Source of the DNA: Macrostomum lignano
Taxonomy: Eukaryota
DNA length: 64,000 bases
Direction of reading: 5' to 3'
NCBI GenBank assembly: GCA_002269645.1
Contig: NIVC01000048.1
Coordinates: forward strand, 138,566 to 202,565
The position numbers were made by a program, and so were the translations under genes. The notes beneath the pieces are model-generated. The model was not told where the DNA came from, ran no database searches, and worked only from the letters and a program-made list of their open reading frames with translations. Positions 25,893 to 64,000 of the stretch are shown here, piece by piece. How positions within the stretch are numbered: position 1 is the stretch's first letter; every line of letters starts with the position of its first letter.

Positions 25893-28800
25893 CACAATTT
25901 TTCGGCCTTGAGTCGACCTTGAGCTCAAAACCGGTTTTTTGATGAGTTCACGAAAGGAATTTTATTATTTGACAGGTGGGGTTTTTGAATAGAAAGGGGT
26001 GAGACTTGGGTTACATTCAGGTTAACATTTACCATATTTGGAAGTTCTAAAAATAGATGTCGAGAACCGGTTTTTTCGAACAATAGCATAGCCACTCGCT
26101 GTTTGCGTGACATGACTGGTATTACTAAAAATAGAGTATGACCCATAGCTATTTTTAAATTTGTATTCATAACTTTATGTTACTACTTTTAGTAGGCTAC
26201 TGTGTTTGAAGATCTCTACACCTCAACAGCCATTTATATCTGATGGTGCAGGAAAGCAAAGAATTAACGATAAAGCTGGCGGTAACAAAAGCTATACTTG
26301 CAGCAAGATAACGCGACAGTCCTGGCAGATAAATGGTTATTTTTGCTTTCTTTTGGTTATTTTTATTTTTGGTTGGCAGTCGGCTTGGTCAGTAGCCCAC
26401 ATTTTGGGCTCCATCCCAGTGGTTTCATATCGGCCAGTTCGCACACAATATGGTGATATATCAATAATACATGTAACGAAGCGATTAAAAATATATCAAT
26501 TTGGTTACTGAATGTTGTCGAAAATGAAATCTCATTCCTTTATTTTCACATATTACAATTATCATTGGCTACAATGCAAGTACACTGTAAGCATTTATAG
26601 CGGCTTCTTTTTCCGGATATGTTAATAAATGTTTAAGGGATTAAACAAAAACTGTCAAAATTATTTTTAGTTTAGCTAACATGTGTGGCACCATTACTGA
26701 GATGCTTATCTAATAAAAATGTTTTGTGTGAACTAAGTTGAAATACTTTTCTACCAAACGTATCTTATTGTTAGTGCAAACAATAAATTATTTATTTTAA
26801 CGGTATAACTTTTAATTAATTTTTCATGCGAGCTTTTCAGAAACGGTACGGTACGGTACGGTAGACCGTACACGGTAGTGCAGTCCAACTTGCAACTCTG
26901 ATTGCTAAGCGAACTGCGAAATTTGAGGCCCTTCTAAAATATTTTAATAGGGTGAATGTGTTTTCTATTCTTAACCTGCCTACCGTCCCTACCGACTACG
27001 ACTAGGTTTGAAAACTGCTTTTGACGCAGTTTCATAGTACGAGCGTAGATAGAGCAAAGTATGATGATCTTTCTAGTGGTAGCGTTTTCATCTACCAGCC
27101 ACGTGCCACGTTATCATCTTTTTGATAGTTTGTAGTGCCCTTCACAAGTTTTGTAGCTATGGTTCAATAGACATAGTTCATGTGTCTATTCAATATATAA
27201 TAGTCGAAAATTGTGTGAATCTCAGTTTGGATTAATGCATTATTAGTGTTAGAACCAGTCAGTCAGATAAGAATCATAAGAGTAGAATTATTTTGTTTTA
27301 AAATTTTTGATTTTTGTGGCCAAGACTTTAGTAGTTTAATAACTAGTAGTAGTTTAAGTAGTTTAATAGTAGTTTAATAATTAGTATAAGGTCATTTTTA
27401 AGATTGATTTAAATGGACAAAGGAAATTATTTTCATTTCAGACTATTTTATTTAATCCTACTTGAACATTATTTAGCTAGTCACTGACTTACTGTGGCTT
27501 GTTTTTTAATAATTTAAATTTTTATAAGGAATATGTTTTTTTGGCTGTCAAAAGTTTTGATTTTTGATTTAAAAGAAACTTTATATTCAAGCTAAGAATG
27601 TTTTAAAAATATTTCATTACTTTTTTAATTTCAGTTTTTTCTTTGAACTCTTTTCTTCTGTCTAAATGGCATTTTATACTTCTTTTTTTCCTGTCTTAGA
27701 GTGTAAGCGAAAAATTAAGAATTTTCTTGCTTGAGACAAAATTATATCTGCATGTAATGTTATTGCTTACTCTATATCAGTTTGCAGTATAGTTTAACTT
27801 TTTTATAAACAATTATTATGCTGAAAATTTTAAATTATAAATTTAAAAGAAACCAAAAGTTCAATAACACTGTAAGATATAAAGTCTCATGTTTTTGGCA
27901 CTTTTTGATTAGCCATATTTAGCATCAAAGAAGTGACATTCATGTTGATCTTAATTATTGTTTAAATTTATAAGTTTAGCGTGTACTTTTTTGCTATTTT
28001 TCTGAACTTTCGAACCCTTCGTTTTTAGCCAGCATTTTGGTTTTCAAACATTCGAGAAAATAATATTCGTAGTTAAAAATTCTAAAACAGACAGAAGACA
28101 GGAGCCATAACGGGGTTGCATGGATGACAAACAAAAGAAACTGGAGAAGATCTGCTCAAACTCTGCCCTGCTGAAATCTGTCCATCTCTCTCTCTACCGT
28201 TGCATTCTCACTCTCTCCCTAGCAAATGTAAACAAGGCTCTGGCAAACAGCGAAAAAGCACAAGCTGACTGATATCTGCTATAGACTACTGCCGTCCCAC
28301 CGCTCCCTCGCTCTCTCCCCCATCTCATTTCTCAGCCCTCCTCAACCCGTTATGAGCTGACGACAAGAGAACTGGCGTACTTTGCTTCGCTTTGCACACA
28401 AAGCAGAAAAACGTCTTTTGTGGGGAGTTGGCGAGCAAGCCAGTGGTTGCTAGGGTGTGCAGGTATTTTTTTAATTATGGGGGGGTTAGAGGTAAGAGAT
28501 TGAAGCCAGTTCGTTGTTTCTTAGGCTTAGCTTCAGGTGGAAGGCAGGTGAGGTGTTTGTCTGCCTTTCCAAGACTCCAAGACTGCTTCACCCCCACCCC
28601 AACCGGCCTATATTCCTCATAGGCATTTGCAGCAACTGTACTCTTTGGCTCTTAATCTTTGCTGCCAATGCCGCTGCAGATGCGCAATGGATGAACGTAG
28701 AGCTTCATCTCATCTCTCTTTCCCTTTGAATTCAACTGCTGCAAAATGGGCTCCTTTCATGCCTTCAGCTGGACGGTTGGTTAAGTAAAGATGCACTTCA

Positions 28801-44587: not shown

Positions 44588-47421
44588 TGAGGGGCACTAA
44601 AAAGTTCTAAGCCTGACCAAGATCCCATGGTCACAAAGCACTGAAAATTGATCCTTTAACACAATATGTTAATGTTTTGACAAAAATTTCAGCTCTCTAG
44701 GCATTACTAAAGTTCCATAGGACCTTAATATTTTCAGCTACCTATGGCAAATTCTCAAGAACTAAAAATGAAGTACAGGATAGTGATCAAATTTCTGACC
44801 TTAAAGGGCTCAAAAGCTGCTGAAATCCAAAGTTGCTTGGCTGCCATATATCCTAGGGCTGCCCCCTCATATGCCACTGTCAAGCATTGGGCAGCCAAGT
44901 TCAAGCGTGGCCCCGACTCTCTCAACAGGGTGACCGCGCTCCAGTAACTTTTTTCTTCCCTGACTAAACTAAATTTTCCCTGACACACTAAAAGTAATAG
45001 AAGAAGCTCAGTGATAGTTGTGCACAATAATTTTATTGCAACAAACTGTTGCGCATTAAAAAGTCAGCAATGTTGAGATTAATTTAATTTGAATTGAAGT
45101 TGAAACAGCGCATGTATTGGCAATAATTTGTTTGAATTAATAATGAAAAATTAATGCACCGGAAACTGACCACAAAAAACGTAGTGTTTGATAAAAAATT
45201 GCATGAAAAATATCAAGTACTAACTTTTATTGTATGTGGCGCACAGTAAAACAAAGTTAAGAGATGTAGCACTGTAGTTAAAATTGAGTTCAATGAGGAA
45301 TCGTACCTTCAAGTGCTACAATCTCTTTCTCTACCTTCTCCACTTCTTCCTTTTTCTGTTGTGCAGCACGACGCAGTGCATTTGACTTCACGAGTAGGCT
45401 CATGTTTGAATCCGTCTCACGTTGGTACACGAGGCTATCCGCATCTTTGGTGAGAACTGCAACATCAAGCAGGAGCTTCTTTTGCTTCGACTGGAGCTCC
45501 AGCACCGTTGCATCCTTCCTTTTCCTTGATTCCTCGTATTTCCGATGAGATGCTTCTGCTCGCTGCTGCTCCAACATGGCCCTGTACCTACTCCTGGCAC
45601 TTCTCACACTCTTCAACATCTCCTCGGTAACTTTCGCGATGATTTCAGCGGCAGTCTTTCCCTTTTGCCACTCGTACACAAGTCGGAGAGAACGAATGCT
45701 CAATCCCTGAAGATTTGGTTCTAGGCACTCTTTGTTGACACTGAAGCCGCGCTCAACAGCAGCATTCCCATGGAAGGTTGTCAGAACCATCTTCACAATG
45801 ATCTGCAAATTATTGGTACTCGTTGAATCAGTGAAGAGGGAAGCAAAGAGGACATCAAGTCGGTCTGACTTATAGTCGAATTGAGACAGCTGAAATCGAT
45901 GCTCACGAACTGTAACAGTTCGAAACTGGGTGAACTCGGACTTTGCAGCGTCAGCTTCCTGTGCAGTGATGCGTCCCTTAGTGTAGGCTTCCAGGACAAG
46001 CGCATCAAAATCCGCTTGAGCCGGTGATGAGGATGGTGGGTCACTATCCAATTCTGCCACCAGCACAGAAAAACAAAATATACACCTTTCTATTAATGGC
46101 CTGGTTAATATATTATCATAGTATGGACTATATATTTTACTGTCAGTGTGATTAGCACAGCAATTATAGATTAGCAATATGTAGGCCTACAAGCCCATAA
46201 ATTATTCATTTAAGAACAAGTATCTGCCAATTTCAAATAAATACCAGCTTTTAAAAACAAAAATACATGGAACAAACAAAACAGATTTACTATTTGAGCT
46301 ACTTAGTGCTATCGATTAGCCGCTTTCTTGTCTCACAATTTTTTTCTTCAATTTTCTAATTTACTTTCAAATTTTCCCTGACTTCCTAAGAATTTCCCTG
46401 ACTTTCCCTGACTTTCCAGACCACATTTTTTTCCCTGACTTTCCCTGACTTTCCCTGACCGCGGTCACCCTGCTCAAAGATGACCCTCGATGTGGACGCC
46501 CTAGACTGCTGTCACTGCTGATAACATCCAGCACATCCAGGCCCTGGTTGATGGCGACTGGCGGATAAAGGTCAGGGAACTTGCAGTAGACACTGGGCTT
46601 TTTGACCTACAGGTCATTAAGATCCTGCACTAGCATCTTCATCTGTCGAAGGTCTCAGCCTGATAGATCCCACAAATCTTGACAAGCAACCAGAAGTCCG
46701 CGTGGTTGCAGTATGTGAAGCTTGTCCTGCAAACTTACAATCTAGATCCTGCCAGCTTTTTGTCTTGCTATGTGACCAGTGATGAGACATGGATCCACCA
46801 TCATGATCCTAAGTTAAAGAAAGAGTTGAAGCAATGGCTGCCAGTTGGTGCACCTGCACCACTGAAGGCACAGTCTGGATGCAATGCAGGCAAGATAATG
46901 CTCACTATCTTTTGGGATGCCAAAGGCCCACTGCTACTAGACTTTTTGCCACACAAGCAGACAATCACAGGTGCCTACTATGCCAATCTAATTGCCCATA
47001 TGCGCGAGGCAATCAAGGAGAATTGGCGGGGAATGCTGAGCCGTGGTGGTGCTGCTGCACGACAATGCACCTGCTCACACCAATGGGCTGGCAAAGGCAG
47101 CTGTCAATATTGCAGGGTTCCAAGAGCTGCTACACCCTGCCTATTCACCAGACCTTGCCCCAAGTGACTTTTACCTATTTCCGCATCTTAAGCCAGCACT
47201 CTGTGGGCAGCAATTTGACACCAATGAGGCACTGAAGGATACTTCAACCTTCTGGTTCAAGGGGTGCTCAAAGCAGTTCTTTCAGAGTAGCATCAAAGCA
47301 CTGCGATCAAGATGTCACAAGTGCATCTTGGTCAAGGAAGACTATGTAGAAAAAACTGATTGCATTTGCCCCAATTCTCTTTTTTTCATACTGAGGCTCA
47401 GAACTTTTTTAGTGCCACTCA
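44588..47421 (+). mobile_element. Mariner (DD34D) element, pseudogenised and interrupted by a nested element
   Basis: TA TSDs (44586-87, 47422-23); TIRs tgaggggcactaaaaagttct / agaactttttttagtgccactca; N-terminal MANSQ...WAAKFKRG at 44744, resuming KDDPRCGRP at 46473; TSDETW, HDNAPAH, YSPDLAPSDF, KCILVKEDYVEK. Confidence 0.95.
44926..46472 (-). mobile_element. Internally deleted hAT-like element with 5-bp TSD (hAT5-like), retaining the last transposase exon
   Basis: 13-bp perfect TIR CAGGGTGACCGCG; TSD ctcaa at 44921-25 and 46473-77; subterminal ttccctgac repeats; ORF 45290-46177 contains FHGNAAVERGFSVNK (hAT-type S/ERxFS dimerisation motif), with an acceptor near 46053. Confidence 0.85.
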
Positions 47422-47426
47422 TACAT

Positions 47427-47822
47427 GCGCAACTTTGGGAATCACCCGGCCGTTTCTATTGGCAACACACACATGTAAGTCGCTATTGGCTGAGAGCAGT
47501 CACGTGACTACTACTCCGTCCAATAGCGACTTACATGTGTGTGTTGCCAATAGAAACGGCCGAGTGAATCCCAAGGTTGCGCCCAAGCATGGTGCCACTT
47601 GTATCTTTTGTTCTGGTGATCCATTCCAAATAATTTCATTTTACATAGTTTTATAGTAGCAACTAGAGATAGAACAAATATTTCGTTCCATTCCTTTGCA
47701 ACATGCACATGTAAGTTGCTATTGGACAGAATATTAGTCACATGACTGCTTTCAGCCAATAGTGACTTACATATATATGTTGTCAATAGAAACAGCTGGG
47801 TGATTCCCAAGGTTACGCATAT
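47427..47822. mobile_element. MITE-like element whose inverted arms are themselves hairpins
   Basis: 63-bp stem 47427-47489 / 47520-47582 (3 mismatches); degenerate inverted copy of the hairpin at ~47695-47820. Confidence 0.65.
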
Positions 47823-53072: not shown

Positions 53073-53864
53073 CAGTATTGCCAATGCCACTCCAGTGAGT
53101 TTTAATCGCTGAGCAATTTTTTGTCATATTCAGCAATTTTCAGCGATTTTTTATTCTAGGCATTAGAATTGTGGGATTCTGGGGGTAAGAACCGTGAGAT
53201 TCTAGGAGTAAGAATCGTGAGATTTGATGGTAGGAATCGTGAGATTCTAGGAGTAAGAATCGTGAGATTTGATGGTAGGAATCGTGAGATTCTGGGAGTA
53301 AGAATCGTCAGATTCTAGGGTTAAGAATCGTTGGATTCTAGGAGTAAGAATCGTGAGATTCTGATGGTAAGAATCTTGAGATTCTGGGGGTAAGAACCGT
53401 GAGATTCTAGGAGTAAGAATCGTCAGATTCTAGGGTTAAGAATCGTTGGATTCTGGGGGTAAGAATTGTGAGATTCTAGGAGTAAGAATCGTGAGATTCT
53501 GATGGTAAGAATCGTGAGATTCTGATGGTAAGAATCGTGAGATTCTGATGGTAAGAATCGTGAGATTCTGATGGTAAGAATCGTGAGATTCTGATGGTAA
53601 GAATCTTGAGATTCTGGGAGTAAGAATCGTCAGATTCTAGGGTTAAGAATCGTTGGATTCTGGGGGTAAGAATTGTGAGATTCTAGGAGTAAGAATCGTG
53701 AGATTCTAGGGGTAAGAATCGTGAGATGCTGGGAGTAAGAATCGTCAGATTCTGGGAGTTAGAGTCGTGAGATTCTGGGAGTAAGAATCGTAAGATTCTA
53801 GGGGTAAGAATCTTGAGATTATGGGAGTAAGAATCGTGAGATTCTAGGGTCGGTGGCAACACTT
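53073..53864. mobile_element. Non-autonomous hAT element filled with a 23-bp minisatellite (gtaagaatcgtgagattctagga)n
   Basis: Termini cagtattgcca and tggcaacactt; 8-bp TSD tcacactg / ccacactg (1 mismatch); array at 53165-53848. Confidence 0.7.
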
Positions 53865-54549
53865 CCACACTGGTCAGTTGCACCTTTAGACAATTGACAA
53901 ACTTGTAGCAGGTCTCTTGACTCAGTGACTTTACTGCAACTAAAACTGCTGAAAATCACTTTCATACAATTGAAAAATGCTTGTAGGATAGGTTGGTGTC
54001 CCGTAAATAATCACTCCACATCAGTAGTAGCTAATAGAAAATGATGCGCATACTCCAATTTTTTATTGCAAAAAAAGTAGTAAGGTACCCGTCAGAAATT
54101 CTACTACGCACATACCACATTTTCCTATTAAAAATTAAATAGTAAGGTACCAAACCAGCTGGGACAGGGTATTCTACAATAATCCTCACTACACAGTCTA
54201 CACTGCCTGCACCCACAAAGAACAAAAGAAAAGATCTCAATAAATTGTGGGAGTCAAGTTCTAGCAGTCAATTTTCATGCTTCCCCCAAGCTACCAAAAC
54301 GCAGTTCAGAACAGCGCACAGACAGCAAATAAAGTCAGTTTTTTACACTCGCTCCATAACACATTGTCTTCTCTATCCCCCAAACAGTGAATTCTAACTA
54401 AACAATCTACTACCCATAAAGAACGAAAGAAAAGACCGCAATGTCGATCAACCAAGCTGGCCAAAAAATGTTTCTTGATATATTTCTGCATAACAATTGA
54501 ATATATGCAACACATTGCATTGTATTGCATTGCATTGCAAAGCATTGTA

Positions 54550-55077
54550 GGCAAAAATACGCATGCCAAAACTCATTTTCTCGACGAGGCCCACAACCAA
54601 GAACACGCGTTAAAAGAGAATCAGAGGGTACCACCATGAGTCAGTTTGAAATACAAATAAAACAACACCCGAATACCGCAATGACCAGTTCGATGGTCCT
54701 GAATAGCAAATTGGCTGTAGGTCCAATTCTGAAAACCCCCACAATCCCGCCCCAACCACCGTCTAATATTTTCCGGGGGATTTCAACCAAGCGAATCAAA
54801 ATACTCCCCAACTCTTCGTCCACGACGACCCCCAACTCGCTTGCTACTCACCCAAACCACCACCCAATGCCTACCAGGAAGATACGAAGAAGTCTGTAAT
54901 TGCCACAAAGAAATAGTCTCTACCATCTAACGGTAATTGTCTAAGAGCTCTAATCGAGTCCTGATGATACATACACACCTGAAAAGACAACACCAAGCAA
55001 TCCCATATATAGATTTGTAATAATTGACCGCAAAATCTATCCCTGACACCCTGCAACATGTTCAGCTTCACTTCCAT
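54550..55077 (-). pseudogene. Adenain-like (peptidase C5) cysteine protease of Polinton type
   Basis: After joining frames: YFFVAITD..SYLPGRHWVVVWV (catalytic His), EYFDSLG*NPP (Asp), WTYSQFAIQDHRTGHCG (Gln and Cys); contains frameshifts and a stop. Confidence 0.85.
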
Positions 55078-56240
55078 GCTGTACCCGGCACGACGTCGTG
55101 AAGCTCCGTGATCTGCAGCTCCTTGTCAAATAGACCGCAGAATATTACATTGTACTTACAGACAACGCTTGTTGCCTGAGCAAGTGCAACTCCAACTTTA
55201 CATTCCCTTCCTTATAGAGCTGAGCACTAATGCCCGACACCAGGCTCGCTTCCCAACGCAAACGCGAAAATCAAGTATCGATCCACTGCCATAGTCCTCC
55301 ATTGTGAAGCCAACGTCTCGTCCTTGCAGATACAACCCCAACTGCTGCAGCAGATTGGTATATTCTCTCACACAACTACCGGCACCAATTTTTTTGCATA
55401 GGTCGCGAAGGGACAGACTCCCCGTTAACAAACACAGAAATGCTGCTGAGACTTGCATGTTCCGCCTATTCACACAGTTGAATGGGTTTGTATCCATACT
55501 TCCGTTGAAAACCTTGTTGTTCACGAAGGCTACTAGAAGTAACCTCGGCACCTCGTTCTGCTGCTCGTTGCTGCTTGTTGGGAGCGTGGTTGTTGTTGTC
55601 AAAGCGTATCGTGGCAACGTTGGGTGTTGAAGTATGCAGAAATTAATTCATTCTCGTTGATGGCAGCGGCAGTGGTAGGCGTTCTCGGTCTAGCCATTCT
55701 CACTTTTAGGCGCATTAAAGTTCGTAGTACTCGTAGTAACGAAGGAGGACCCAGCTGTGTGAATAGGCGGTAAATCGAGTCGCGCAATTGAACCAACAAG
55801 CCGCCAGGTGGCAACAGGCGCTCCGCGTCACCACCGTCCTGGCCAGGTATAAACACCAAATAGTTGATCAGTCCTCGGTGAGCTGACTCGCGCAATTCAA
55901 CCCTTCACCCATCAGGAGGATTGTTGGCAGCAGTTAGTTCGCGAATCGGCCCATTCAGTAGTTCAGGAACGGAACAGAATTGATACGTGTGACGTGTGAA
56001 TGTGCAACTCCGCAAAACGAACGAAACATGCTCTTGCATACAACACACCGTATTAAGGGCTGGAAAGGGAGATAAGTTTTATTAGCCAATGAAAACAGTA
56101 GTAATATTTTCCTATTAAGAGAATAGAATAAAAAATAAACTTTTTTTGTCAGCAGGGGGACGTCACTACAAATAGTAGTAGAAGTTGTACTTGCGAACCC
56201 CAAACGCGAGGGCGTGTCTTTAATAATAGAGGGTGACACG
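55068..56240 (-). pseudogene. Polinton-type major capsid protein (double jelly-roll), fragmented
   Basis: EVPRLLLVAFVNNKVFNGSMDTNPFN, REYTNLLQQLG..GFTMEDYGSG and C-terminal ALAQAT..YNVIFCGLFDKELQI match the Polinton MCP pattern (LPxRxxVAFVxNxAFNGxYxxNPFN); stop at 55068-70 overlaps the protease start. Confidence 0.75.
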
Positions 56241-56879
56241 GTTAACTTTAGTCGACTTTTAGCCCCTCGTTATTTTATTCATCAATCCGCGCGAGTTTGT
56301 AGATCCTATGTATGCAAACGGCTGTCGTCAGCACCTACAAAACGAGTGCCAACATGCACAACCAACAAAATAGATGGTGGTGGTGGTGCATCTCCAAGTA
56401 GCCGCGAGCGTCCTCACTTTCCTGTGGAAAATGCAATACTCCACTTGCATTGGCATTGGGTTTGTTGTTATCCTATGCACACCGTAATTCAACCAATGAA
56501 TGCAAGCGCAGACCTCGTTATATTGGGTCAGAATCTAGCGCTCCTTTACTAGTCTGGTTGCATTTAAGGCACTGGGCCAGGCGGACCTGAATGGTTCTAT
56601 GACCTATAGTCGGCCTAGACACCCAGCTGTGGAAATAAAAATCCATACAATGCAACTTCAAAGAGCTACTTGCCAATGGTCGAAAAAACCCCAGCCGTCA
56701 ATTTACACCAGACACCAGGATGGGCATGGCCACAAATTATTGCCGGCATAGAGACAAAACCAAACCGTCGGCTGGCAAGTAAGTAAAACTCCTTCCACAA
56801 CCGCATCAACAACAACGATTTTTAATAAATAGAATTAATCGTGTTGAAGAATGCTTGTCAGCAGGGGGACGTTATTCCA

Positions 56880-57303
56880 ATAGTAATAGGTGGAAATACT
56901 CACGAACCCCAAACGTGGGGGGCATGTTCAATAGAGGGCCTCTGCCAGAAGCAAGTTGAATGCGTGAGCAGACGCCATGGACCTTTCCATCACCAGAATT
57001 TCGTACTCCGGTTGATCCGGCTCCGGTGAGAGTAGCAATTCTCTCATGTTCTTGTCCCAGTGAAGCAGACAATGGCTCGCACGGATTTGAAAGCCGATTG
57101 CTGAAAGAGATCCTTGATAGAATTCCTCCAGCGAGTTCGTCTCTGCCGGCAGCTTCGGGTGTGAGGTGAACGCATGAACCGGCTCTTTGGCCCCAGAGAA
57201 TCTGCGGTTCCCATTTCTTCAGTCGCGAGTTCAGGGCCAGATTTCTTAGAAGCATTGTTTTGCCTACCGCTACATTTCCCTCGAGAATGTAGGTCCGGGC
57301 CAT
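56880..57303 (-). pseudogene. Deoxynucleoside kinase (dCK/dGK/dNK family), frameshifted
   Basis: MARTYILEGNVAVGKT (P-loop); after a shift near 57190: KEPVHAF...NSLEEFYQ...AIGFQ...ILVMERSMASAHAF (EP, FY, FQ and ERS motifs); a possible C-terminal YLEMHHHHH..WL lies near 56360-56410. Confidence 0.8.
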
Positions 57304-60134
57304 GGCTGGAATTTTTTGCCGATTGTGCTGCTTGTGCATGCTGATGGCAAGCAGTGCATTAACAGATCGAGTTAAGAGATTTACTTTGGTATCGTTTTTT
57401 GTCTCCCATTGCGAAAATCTTCGCAGTATGAAAGACGTTGCAAAAGAGTCTGGGAGTTTTTGACTATCTTATCTGATTGTCTGCAGAAAAAACTTCTGCA
57501 TCGTAGGTTGCCCTAAGTCTCTATAGTTTCCGACACAGCTTTTTAAATAGTGGAAGCTGTTTCTCCCAGGAAACTGAACTTGACCAACTAATGTAGAAGT
57601 TTGAACGTGGACAAAATCGAAATCCAGTTTGTAAATAGTAATTTCGTTAACAAACTGTAAAATCGATGCCACGTCCGCATTCATATTGCGGTAAAAAATT
57701 CTCGGCCTCTCGTTGGGATAAAGCTGAATAGTTGAATCCACAGATTTAAATTTGCACATAGTAGGCTTCGCTTTAAAGACCTTTCACGAATATTACTTTC
57801 GAGCTAACGCTGTCTCAGTCTCGTTTATGCAAAGCTTTTCTCCAGGACAGATTTTCAGTGCGGCACCAAAAATCAGTAGCACCAAGCGCTGAAAGAAGAA
57901 AAGCAAAGGCACAATAGATTTTACCCACAATATAGAAATGTTCCTGGCGAAACCTGGGTGGCCAATGTATTTTGTATCCACAACCGTTTTTAAAAAAATG
58001 AATATCGGATTTGGATTTCGAATTCGGATGTGGATTCGGTTGGCTTCAGAGTCGCTCGATGTGGACTGCTCCGCGGCGGCCGCCAGGTGACGTTGATAGG
58101 CCAGGTCTTTAGACGCCACCCGAGTTCCGCCAGTTGACGTTGAGATAGTTGACCCCGTAGAACTCACCAGTGCCTTGGCCGGGGACGGACCTTCAGCCGG
58201 GACCAGCCGGTCGCTTTGTGTGGCTGCAGGCTTCGGTTTCTTGGGCGCAGGAGGCCGGCAAGGTGCCGCCGGCTTCTTTAGTGGTTGCTTTTTCTTGTAG
58301 CTAGTGGTTCTAGCAAATACTACTTTTTCTCTGCTATTTTCTATAATCCTATATAGGCTGTAAGCAAACTAAGAGCAGAAGGAAAGACTCAGAGCCATAG
58401 TTATTAGGTGGAGCCAGAAATGAGGAAGCCCTACAAGTTAAAACCGATAGTGTTTGTTGATATAGAAGAAGACGAGGAGGGGTATATGCAGGCGCCGCAG
58501 TCCGCAGACACCCTCGCCGACGAGTAGAAACACAAAATCCATTTTTCCTAATTCTTCCCAACTTTTAGCCACAACAACAGTTACAATGGAGTCAACGCCG
58601 ATTAAAGCACCGCCATGCACGTCCCGCGCGGCAATTTTCACCGCGTTGACGCGCTTCATACGCGATGAGTGGTGTCCGGCCCCCTCGGTTGCCGCGAATA
58701 CGAGATTGAGTGAGCTGGCGAGTACTCGACTGGCGACTGGCTGCCAAAGCCTTTATCCGTACATTTTGCAGCTGCACGTTCGCGCTGCATTTACTGCTTA
58801 ATTAAAACGCAGTGTTTCCTGCCTTCCTTTAGCATCTGACTGCTGTATTCCAATCGATTAGAAGTGCTGTGTATCTATTCTAGTCTTTTTCTTCGTGGGA
58901 GGATGCTTTGTCTTTTAATCGCAAGCACAACTGCACCACTATTCTATCGCGTGCAATTGCGTGGACATTCAGTTGCAAAACTACTTGTGCATACGCTACT
59001 CACTATATAAACGGGACGTACATCTGCTTAGTAGCCTATTTTCTGTAGGCTGGACAACATTTTACGCCTAAATCTCCGAGATCTGTAGAGATTGTTGCAT
59101 TGTGTGAGCTTTTTTCTGTGCTTTAAAGCTCACAGCCAGCCCTCGAATTTCCCGCCGGTTACAAAGTAAATGAACAATTCTGGTGCGCTTTCAAAACTCA
59201 AATGAATTTCATTAATATTGTTCATTATTACGTGTACATGCAATGTACAAAAGTCATGTATGTGTAGTAAATGTTCTGTGGTAAAAGTACCAGGTACATA
59301 GACGTCAAGGGAAGCGAATTTTTTATTCTTAGGACCTTGAAGTGGCCATGAAAATTTGCACTAAATGAATTGCAAATGCTCGTTTTTATTCAACTACTAT
59401 AATATATTTGGGTAGTGGTATTTTTACTAGTGTTTAAATCGTATATTCTTTCTTTAAAATAGTATGTTTACGTACTTTCTTAAAAAAACTGCATTCAAAT
59501 TCGCCGCCAAAGTTTTTTGTAAACGTTTGTCTTAACAAAAAATACTCTTAGCTCGTAAGTGAGCAGAAACCGAGAAAACGAGAAAGCCTTTCAATTCAAC
59601 AGTAATATTTTTCCAACTTTGGAAAGTTAACCAAATTCGATATTTGCAGTTTTAAAAGACTTTGTCATTCCCTTAGAGACCCAACAAATGGGAGATTTAC
59701 ATATGTACATGTAAGAACCGTTTAGAAACGAGACTTAGTAGTCTGAAGTAGATCGCCTGACCCTCTGATCGCGGAACGCACGGACTGAGAGAAATCCCTC
59801 TATAGGAGTAAAATAGCTACGTGTAGAAATAAACAGGAATAGAATTCAGTGACATATAACCGCTCAGGCCAGTAAATAGTACATACGGGAGCACGAGATT
59901 TTCCCGCGAGAGTTTCTCGCCGAGGTTTTGCCACGGGGTTTTTCCTGTGGGAATTTTAAGTCAAATCCTGTCTTATGGTCAATGCTGGACTAGATTAGAG
60001 CTAGTCTAGACTAGACATAAACTAGAGACTAGATTTCAAATCCGATTGGATTTGACGACGACGCAGCCCCTCGAAGAAAAATACTAATACAAGCTCGTAG
60101 ATATGCATATGTACGATTTTGCATGTACTTAGGA

Positions 60135-61480
60135 TACACTTCCCAATCACTACTATTCCTAAAACTTGAACTTCCAAAACCCTACACTTCCCAAACCCTA
60201 AAATTCCCAAACCTTAAAATTCCAAAACACTACACTTACTAAACCCTACACTTCCCAAACCCTATACTTCCCAAACCTCATACTTCCCAAACCTTAAATT
60301 CCCAAACCCTACACTTCCCAAACCCTACACTTACCAAAAACCCTACACTTCCCAAACCCTATACTTCCCAAACCTCATACTTCCCAAACCTTAAATTCCC
60401 AAACCCTACACTTCCCAAACCCTACACTTACCAAAAACCCTACACTTCCCAAACCCTATATACTTCCCAATCCCTACACTTCCCAAACTCTACACTTCCC
60501 AAACCCTACACTTCCCAATCCCTACACTTCCCAATCCCTACACTTACCAAACCCTACACTTACCAAAAACCCTACACTTCCCAAACCCTATATACTTCCC
60601 AATCCCTACACTTCCCAAACTCTACACTTCCCAAACCCTACACTTCCCAATCCCTACACTTCCCAAACCCACACTTCCCAAACCCTACACTTACCAAAAA
60701 CCCTACACTTCCCAAACCCTACACTTCCCAAACCCTAAAATTCCCAAACACTACACTTACCAAACACTACACTTCCCAAACCCTACACTTCCCAAACCCT
60801 ACACTTCCCAAACCCTACACTTCCCAAACCCTACACTTCCCAAACCCTACACTTCCCAAACCCTACACTTCCCAAACCCTACACTTCCCAAAACCCTAAA
60901 ATTCCCAAACCCTACACTTCCCAATCCCTACACTTCCCAAACCCTACACTTCCCAAACCCTAAAATTCCCAAACACTACACTTACCAAACACTACACTTC
61001 CCAAACCCTACACTTCCCAAACCCTAAACTTCCCAAAACCCTAAAATTCCCAAACCCTACACTTCCCAATCCCTACACTTCCCAATCCCTAAACTTCCCA
61101 AACCCTAAACTTCCCAAAACCCTAAAATTCCCAAACCCTACACTTCCCAAACCCTAAAATTTCCAAACCTTAAAATTCCAAAACAATACACTTACTAAAC
61201 GCTACACTTCCCAAACCCTACACTTCCCAAACCTCATACTTCCCAAACCTTAAATTCCCAAACACTACACTTACCAAACCCTCACCCTTCCCAAACCCTC
61301 ACCCTTCCCAAACCCTCACCCTTCCCAAACCCTACACTTACCAAACCCTACACTTCCCAAACCCTACACTTCCCAATCCCTACACTTCCCAAACCCTACA
61401 CTTACCAAACCCTACACTTCCCAAACCCTACACTTCCCAATCCCTACACTTCCCAAACCTTCAACTTCACAAACTGTTAA
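60135..61480. repeat. 16-bp minisatellite (ccctacacttcccaaa)n, G-rich on the minus strand
   Basis: About 80 units with variants. Confidence 0.97.
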
Positions 61481-63006: not shown

Positions 63007-64000
63007 CAGTTTCCTAGCGAAGCAACGTCTGTCTACTCTAGTCGTCCATGAACGCATTTTTTATCATATATTTGAAGTACAAATATTGTTCACCTTTTCC
63101 GACGCGAAAGTTGCTACTCTGTTAACCTTGGTAGCCGTACATCTGCGAGCCCGATTGAGTAGCATTACGATGTAGTGCAGACTGGATAGCGGAGCTGGCA
63201 AAGGACTCACTGTCGAGTATTCGAGAAGCATTCTGCAATTTAATATATTGCAGATTATAGTTCAGAAACATTAACGGCTGGTAGGCTACTTTGCCCCATT
63301 TGTCCTGCTCCCCAGAACATTTACTTTATTCTTACAAGTACATACAGTACATACGATTGCTACATTCAAAATACTTTAGGATGCACGAAAAATAACCGAA
63401 CAAAACCCACCTGTAACGATTCCGACGCCATATGGCGATGCACTTGACATCCATCACTGCCACTCGCATGCTGAACAGAGCAATCAGCAGGTTCACCAGC
63501 ACAATATTGACAACTATCAGGAATAGGAACACCAGATATTTGCTGAACGCCACGAATCCCGAGCTGGCGGCGCACTCGAAATTGCCCGCCTGTCGCGTTT
63601 CATTGCAAGAGTCGAAATCAACCTTGCCAAAGTCGCCGAACATCAGGTGCATGGGAACAACGAATATGTGCTTGAAAATGGCGCGGGGCTGTCTGGTCAC
63701 AGAGCTTGACATGATGGGGAAAAGCAGAGTAGTAAAAAATATCCGAATGCGATAATGATGACGAAAGCGAAGTTAAAGAACGGCCAAAAGTCTTTGTAGA
63801 GCAGGCTGAGAAACATAGAGATCTTGGCCCCAGTGACTTTGAAGTAGTTGTAGAGGCTCACCAGGCGAAAGGCGCAGAACAGAAAACGAGGCGCCCATTA
63901 CGCTTTGACTGGCGTACAAAGCCTGCTCATTATGGCCGTGCTGACCCAGCATTTTGAGTACAAGGCCGGTCCATATGAGCAGTAGGGCTATCAGGTCAAC
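62484..64000 (-). CDS. TRPM-like cation channel, 3' part (S3-S6, TRP box, C-terminal coiled coil); continues beyond the window
   Basis: Exons >64000-63411, 63232-63094, 62795-62484 with matching phases; FRLV..Y..FKVTGAKISMF, LMFGD pore, VNLLIALFS, IWRRNRY, EY...PLPAP; two single-base shifts are needed in T runs (~63883 and ~63737). Confidence 0.82.
62812..63008. repeat. (TAG)n microsatellite in the last TRPM intron
   Basis: Direct reading. Confidence 0.97.

Follow-up and report, generated by a model that had tools for sequence, protein, structure and literature searches.

The window (the whole analysed stretch of 64,000 nucleotides) contains, between 54023 and about 58696, what is, judging by its sequence, a decayed and internally deleted Maverick/Polinton, an endogenous element of the Polinton/adintovirus kind. 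Every part of it is homologous to the intact elements C2529 and C889 of the same genome, the DNA identity being 84-87%. Capsid and protease homology, the overlap of these two genes and the AGTAGT terminus are common to the relic and the intact Polinton members. A preliminary description had proposed an endogenous Polinton/adintovirus-like relic with a capsid and an adenain-type protease at 54540..56240. The identity is supported by profile matches and by the intact relatives; the limits were too narrow, since the true span also includes a nucleoside kinase and a TBP-like gene.

The relic starts with a terminal inverted repeat on the plus strand (54023..54450), which begins with AGTAGT and has a core up to about 54241 and a longer arm up to about 54450. 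It is 77-78% identical to both ends of intact C2529, and many of the similar terminal repeats found genome-wide start at the same base. The closest ones found (88%) are at C927:67235 and 108329, C4908:30841 and C426:354281; no Polinton genes were found beside them in the stretches examined.

The pseudogene of an adenain/Ulp1-type maturation protease (54536..55077, minus strand) covers residues 1-179 of 187 in three frames, with two stops and about four frameshifts, and matches the intact copy with tblastn E 1e-63. The adenain-type catalytic residues of the preliminary description (HW, FDS, Q, CG) are present on the minus strand as GRHW (54875-54864), YFDS (54803-54792), IQD (54704-54696) and GHCG (54686-54675). 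They do not depend on stitching of frames, as had been thought: a single frame contains the catalytic H, D, Q and C, interrupted once, by a stop between D and Q. Two unstitched fragments match a profile of four distant proteases from the same genome (E 3e-17 and 2e-11). The best sequence match among solved structures is S273R of ASFV, with E 1.9e-6 for the intact copy and E 0.027 for the window piece. Pfam produced no relevant match in 12 whole frames, and none of its models recognizes the capsid or the protease. In particular, peptidase C5, the suggested family, is not matched even by the intact protease, whose sole Pfam match is peptidase family C48 (E 0.033).

The C-terminal third of the major capsid protein gene (55068..55560, minus strand; residues 288-441 of 441) has about five frameshifts and is 84-86% identical to C2529 and C889 at the DNA level. 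All 2586 unstitched stop-to-stop fragments of the window were compared with a profile of 77 database homologues, the first four of 81 rows (the own copy and the three nearest) having been left out. The 149-aa fragment 55201-55647 matches this profile with E 4.6e-14, the next, unrelated fragment having E 1.4. Thus the Polinton capsid signature is confirmed, and the relic, earlier called invisible at the ORF level, is visible in an unstitched frame. The co-orientation and the overlap of about 10 bp also hold: the overlap is 10 bp, with the capsid stop at 55068-55070 and the protease ATG at 55077, and intact C889 has an identical one at 28098-28107.

The late-gene block is, however, not contiguous, as the final third of the capsid gene is joined to the start of the polymerase gene. 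The junction (55561..55585) consists of about 25 unalignable bases with no readable microhomology and spans an 11.1-kb gap relative to C2529 23543-34651. This gap took the integrase, the candidate ATPase, the putative minor capsid gene and most of the polymerase; accordingly, tblastn found neither the RVE integrase nor the packaging ATPase in 53850-60140. The broken 5' end of the protein-primed DNA polymerase gene (55586..56080, minus strand), with a zinc-finger-like start, matches residues 32-179 of the C889 polymerase, which has PF03175, with tblastn E 7e-34; it is all that the relic retains of a polymerase. Three separate deletion derivatives (window 55586-56080, C1090:53927 and C340:2257) break within the first 180-290 polymerase codons.

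Two copies of an internal repeat follow. The first (56143..56257) matches three copies in C2529, and the second (56853..56933) adjoins a 0.7-kb gap that took the 3' half of the kinase gene. Both loosely resemble the terminal motif and could be promoter- or origin-like sites. The frameshifted 5' half of the deoxynucleoside kinase gene (56937..57303, minus strand) is 86% identical over residues 38-122 to the C2529 kinase (PF01712, E 9e-21). The broken TBP-like gene (57304..57828, minus strand) has three stops and about five frameshifts; its intact relative resembles TBP. A fragment of a conserved Polinton ORF (58042..58304, minus strand) is 89% identical to a C2529 ORF over 90 aa, and the C889 homologue of this ORF has no Pfam match. 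The leader of the dUTPase gene (58345..58598, plus strand) is displaced and inverted by comparison with C2529, where it matches 27516-27749, in the dUTPase ORF, with 76% identity; it lies in the third gap relative to C2529, of 1.6 kb. The last recognizable Polinton sequence is a piece of a near-terminal ORF (58562..58696, plus strand), with no terminal repeat beyond it.

A second terminal repeat and a target duplication were looked for and not found, so that the relic has a terminus at one end only and the insertion cannot be delimited on both sides. The nearest intact copies found in the genome, by searches that score only the best candidates, reach about 84-88% identity; thus some differences from C2529, such as the misplaced dUTPase leader and the longer terminal arm, may have belonged to an unsampled subfamily from the start and not reflect damage. 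The relic codes for no intact protein and is incapable of moving.

Several other elements occur in the vicinity. A 298-aa transposase-like ORF with no Pfam match (45290-46186) lies in a segment bounded by 24-nt inverted repeats (44918/46480) and missing from C102 and C322, the contigs with the other copies of this region. A frameshifted mariner-type transposase (PF01359) is at 46667-47507. On the other side are a low-copy repeat (58718-59114), a high-copy short inverted repeat (59886-60056) and an exon-like frame with no Pfam match (63332-63772), ion-channel pore-like by eye.

Intact Polintons in the same genome

The preliminary description proposed a search for intact copies, and relatives with a polymerase, an integrase, terminal repeats and 6-bp target duplications are indeed present in the genome. 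The capsid fragment had 88 matches among 122 genome candidates, many in open frames of 430-490 codons; these numbers are not copy numbers. C889:26751-45674 (18.9 kb) and C2529:17164-35936 (18.8 kb) are framed by AGTAGT terminal repeats and exact 6-bp duplications. They are two of the three elements examined; the third, C84, has the repeats and unmatched flanks.

C889 encodes a polymerase, an integrase with a chromodomain, PLA2, a pX-like protein, a dUTPase, a deoxynucleoside kinase and a protein with a weak TBP match. Its polymerase (PF03175, E 2.2e-20) also contains an endonuclease VII domain and has the C-terminal 196 aa in a second ORF, whereas the C1136 polymerase is one 1411-aa ORF. No N-terminal OTU domain was found by Pfam in the polymerases of the intact relatives; Atlas gave C2H2 zinc-finger clusters. 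The RVE integrase (PF00665) is below the cut-off in C889 (E 2.6e-6) and above it in C1136. The candidate packaging ATPase has a visible Walker A motif, the Pox_A32 match being at E 0.002 only, and a 331-aa ORF with no Pfam match is the putative minor capsid gene by size and position. PLA2 (PF08398) and pX (PF05829) are in separate ORFs. The model of the C889 capsid protein (pLDDT 90) matches the capsids of PBCV-1, Sputnik, iridovirus and mavirus with E about 1e-15; as modelled, the major capsid protein is a double jelly-roll.

Some copies deviate from this plan. In C272:384700-399400, which is C889-like, a second, inverted instance of the left arm follows the ATPase gene, a fold-back rearrangement. 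A second, distant Polinton family at C10:921337-926396 has a different gene order and a capsid 32% identical to that of C889. Finally, four loci (L092-L095: twice in C2893, in C1907 and in C1729) hold a 2.1-kb derivative that retains the terminal repeats of both ends and part of the protease; their flanks are the same, and thus this is one duplicated insertion site, not four.

The TBP-like gene and the polymerase-less family

The TBP-like gene had 71 matches among 82 genome candidates (for example, L024:3270-3773) and occurs in most Polinton families; it was not seen in the C10 stretch. The evidence for its nature consists of a Pfam TBP match below the cut-off (E 3e-4, C889), two repeat motifs in the protein, an Atlas score of 0.96 for TBP clusters that are mostly viral (the recognition value being below the tool's threshold), and a weak fold match, where the best TBP rows have E 7e-4 and TM 0.3-0.4 and RnlA is ranked higher. 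Such evidence makes the TBP assignment likely but does not prove it. Only five relatives, all unnamed, were found among 1.84 billion representative proteins, and a word search among shorter proteins produced none. A metagenome locus (L182) was rejected as a chance match in a tailed phage.

In C889 and C2529 the TBP-like and kinase genes are separate overlapping frames; the kinase is absent in C84 and C340, and in the family of C297:261448-262845 (L061) both domains are in one 469-aa open frame. The TBP-like ORF of C889 and C2529 extends for 130-155 codons into the kinase gene in the other frame, where 8-10 stops would be expected from codon usage. An overprinted gene was considered here and rejected, as third-position T is scarce along the whole kinase gene, and the changes in the overlap follow the kinase frame. 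The changes by codon position are 0.25/0.28/0.54 inside the overlap and 0.35/0.24/0.61 outside it.

The largest Polinton family is missing 3.2 kb of the polymerase gene (about residues 291-1346 of 1411), and the same deletion was found in all 24 loci examined (L109-L132, for example in C340, C424, C3924, C4373, C3539 and C3727) by comparison with C84:1067787-1070949 and C1136. These loci are nearly invariant, with a median of three mismatches per 3.45 kb. The 13 copies considered for right flanks had 11 distinct ones, that is, at least 11 sites, and exact 6-bp duplications were found in five of eight end pairs, at four distinct sites, the eight including C84 with its full polymerase. Both copies analysed in full, C340 and C424, have uninterrupted ORFs for the integrase, ATPase, capsid and protease, and all 24 loci retain an open polymerase 5' ORF of 265-301 aa. 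Shortened capsid ORFs occur in four of the 15 capsid frames listed, in part at locus ends.

C1136, with a full polymerase, is 95-96% identical to this family. The capsid changes relative to C1136 are 14 silent and two not, a bias that may predate the deletion. Contigs over the capsid genes were seen in runs where the RNA label is a guess, and such contigs may reflect DNA carry-over from a multi-copy family; no contig among those listed bridges the deletion point. Spread after the deletion would mean that the polymerase was supplied in trans. The family is young, and its spread likely proceeded through a borrowed polymerase.

A broader reading, which we offer tentatively and consider possible rather than probable, is that the relic marks an undescribed flatworm Polinton clade with a small giant-virus-like toolkit (a TBP-fold factor, a dUTPase and often a nucleoside kinase). 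Its most numerous young family would be a satellite using the polymerase of rarer complete copies, lacking the polymerase core and keeping an open terminal-protein-like ORF, the integrase and the whole capsid module. If so, Polinton particles and helper-satellite dynamics would be directly testable in a laboratory model animal.

Age and origin of the relic

A search with the junction produced exactly three full-length matches among 12, in contigs C48, C102 and C322. These contigs have common flanking DNA over tens of kilobases and the same three gaps in the relic. The pairwise differences among the three copies are 2.2, 3.7 and 3.2%, within the range of the flanking DNA (about 0.1-6%). By codon position these differences are 20/25/20, 32/39/32 and 31/27/27, and some of the breaks are common to the three copies, others private. 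That one locus occurs on three contigs which differ by 2-4%, with no codon position favoured, points to a single old insertion decaying neutrally. On the other hand, the differences from intact C2529 are 80/72/158, with an excess in the third position; hence the parent seems to have diverged from C2529 and C889 under selection and died afterwards. M. lignano has three subgenomes 1.9-2.4% apart, according to the portion of PMC10733133 available, and this would explain the three copies.

The relic was seen in sequencing runs of seven studies, and a gene model labelled Macrostomum lignano holds a capsid piece of 97% identity, one line of evidence by which the host is probably that species. The junction is bridged by short-read contigs in three of the four runs examined (X1, X4 and X12, from three studies), one of which may be the source of the assembly.

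One alternative is that the join of polymerase and capsid sequences is an assembly chimera of two repeat copies. In another Polinton family, copies with exchanged flanks (three of eight end pairs) do suggest mis-joins or recombination in the assembly, but this join is common to three diverged contigs and is bridged by the short-read contigs just mentioned, which largely refutes the idea. Equally little is left of a complete but frameshifted capsid gene starting from about 56240 and followed by the protease. The length of the stretch suits a 440-aa gene, but only residues 288-441 can be placed in 55070-56240: over capsid residues 1-266 the profile has no match in the window, 55586-56080 matches the polymerase start and 56080-56240 is intergenic. 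Thus 55586-56240 is not capsid sequence, and this reading is refuted.

In a further reading, the deleted form could itself be a non-autonomous family, of which helper elements made several copies in trans, and the genome does contain other deletion derivatives, one of which has clearly spread, while the relic retains one good terminal repeat. Still, its junction occurs in three copies only, all at the same locus, and its second terminus is missing, so we consider such a family unlikely. Retention by the host for some function, such as supplying small RNAs directed against living Polintons, would agree with the occurrence of the relic in each of the three copies of the region and in the runs of seven studies, and with its 84-86% identity to the intact capsid and protease genes. 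It is nevertheless highly improbable, given that the coding frames decay without bias and the copies have diverged by 2.2-3.7%, as flanking DNA does.

The preferred reading, to which we assign a probability of about 0.92, is that the relic is a dead, internally deleted Polinton copy, likely from a single insertion before the three-way split of the host region, which has decayed since then free of selection and whose close relatives are complete in the same genome. Its parent would have been autonomous, with protein-primed replication, integration through its own RVE integrase and a capsid of the double jelly-roll type that the protease matured. As for the rearranged form, we lean, with considerable uncertainty, towards a defective replication product of template switching integrated with helper enzymes, rather than stepwise chromosomal deletion, the reason being that a segment from the interior is found in inverted orientation close to the far end. 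Being older than the three-way split, the relic sets a minimum age for this Polinton clade.

Comparison with known systems

The capsid tree was constructed by FastTree from 95 rows (six capsids from the same genome, the 91-aa relic piece and 88 of 94 database matches, short ones being omitted) and midpoint-rooted. The relic, whose row fills 20% of the columns, pairs with C889 (support 87) inside a clade of the families from this genome and P0001-P0003 (support 100). Named animal homologues are outside this clade, at 29-34% identity, and "F54H12.2-like" proteins from oyster and ant are among the relatives; no relatives were found in the viral_contigs set.

RepBase contains planarian Polintons and short non-autonomous Polintons. 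The intact relatives resemble Mavericks/Polintons (Polintoviricetes, Orthopolintovirales) in the length of 19 kb, the AGTAGT termini, the 6-bp duplications and the set of pPolB, RVE integrase with a chromodomain, candidate ATPase, capsid and protease. They differ in the capsid, only 29-34% identical to the named animal homologues, and in the accessory TBP-like gene, deoxynucleoside kinase and dUTPase. Excerpts of the literature describe capsid and protease genes in Polintons (PMC4028283) and a polymerase N-terminus with terminal-protein and OTU domains (PMC11161782); the accessible part of PMC6431247 has nothing on non-autonomous Polintons. In vertebrates, 96% of Maverick copies are defective and intact ones carry terminal inverted repeats as well as 6-bp duplications, as stated in the consulted sections of PMC8097293, and the relic is degraded like most of those fossils.

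The gene content is also similar to that of alpha adintoviruses with the Mayetiola-class virion module, as given in the main text of PMC8502044: the intact relatives have a PF03175-type polymerase, an adenain-like protease, PLA2, a pX-like protein, an integrase and a candidate ATPase. Here, however, PLA2 and pX are in two genes, with no single PLA2X. The same text reports degraded adintovirus relics, for example on human chromosome 7, and mentions TBP and dUTPase only in legends, for viruses of non-animal datasets; its supplement, as far as available, does not mention Macrostomum or TBP. More distantly, the relic protease has the H-D-Q-C order and the W after H in common with ASFV S273R and other Ulp1-family proteases. 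The double jelly-roll fold is common to the capsids of PBCV-1 (Vp54), Sputnik and mavirus, which are distant homologues (10-14% identical) from outside this virus group.

Polinton-like insertions in flatworms have been reported already, namely Orthopolintovirales insertions in Rhabditophora (bioRxiv 10.1101/2025.04.19.649669). The main text of that preprint does not contain the word "Macrostomum" and, in the portion available, gives neither gene content nor species. No prior description of these Macrostomum Polinton families was found in the literature searched, although the supplements of the preprint may list the host. Thus the earlier suggestion of an uncharacterized lineage in this host stands within that literature, whereas much of the apparent sequence divergence that accompanied it is decay, the DNA identity to C2529 and C889 being 84-87%. 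Two features were not found described for animal Polintons in the same literature: a TBP-like gene that comes close to belonging to the core set, and a multiplied family that lacks the polymerase and keeps the capsid intact. By itself the relic matters little, since most animal Polinton copies are such fossils. It points, however, to a rich and young set of Polintons in a tractable laboratory animal, where the formation of particles by animal Polintons could be examined.
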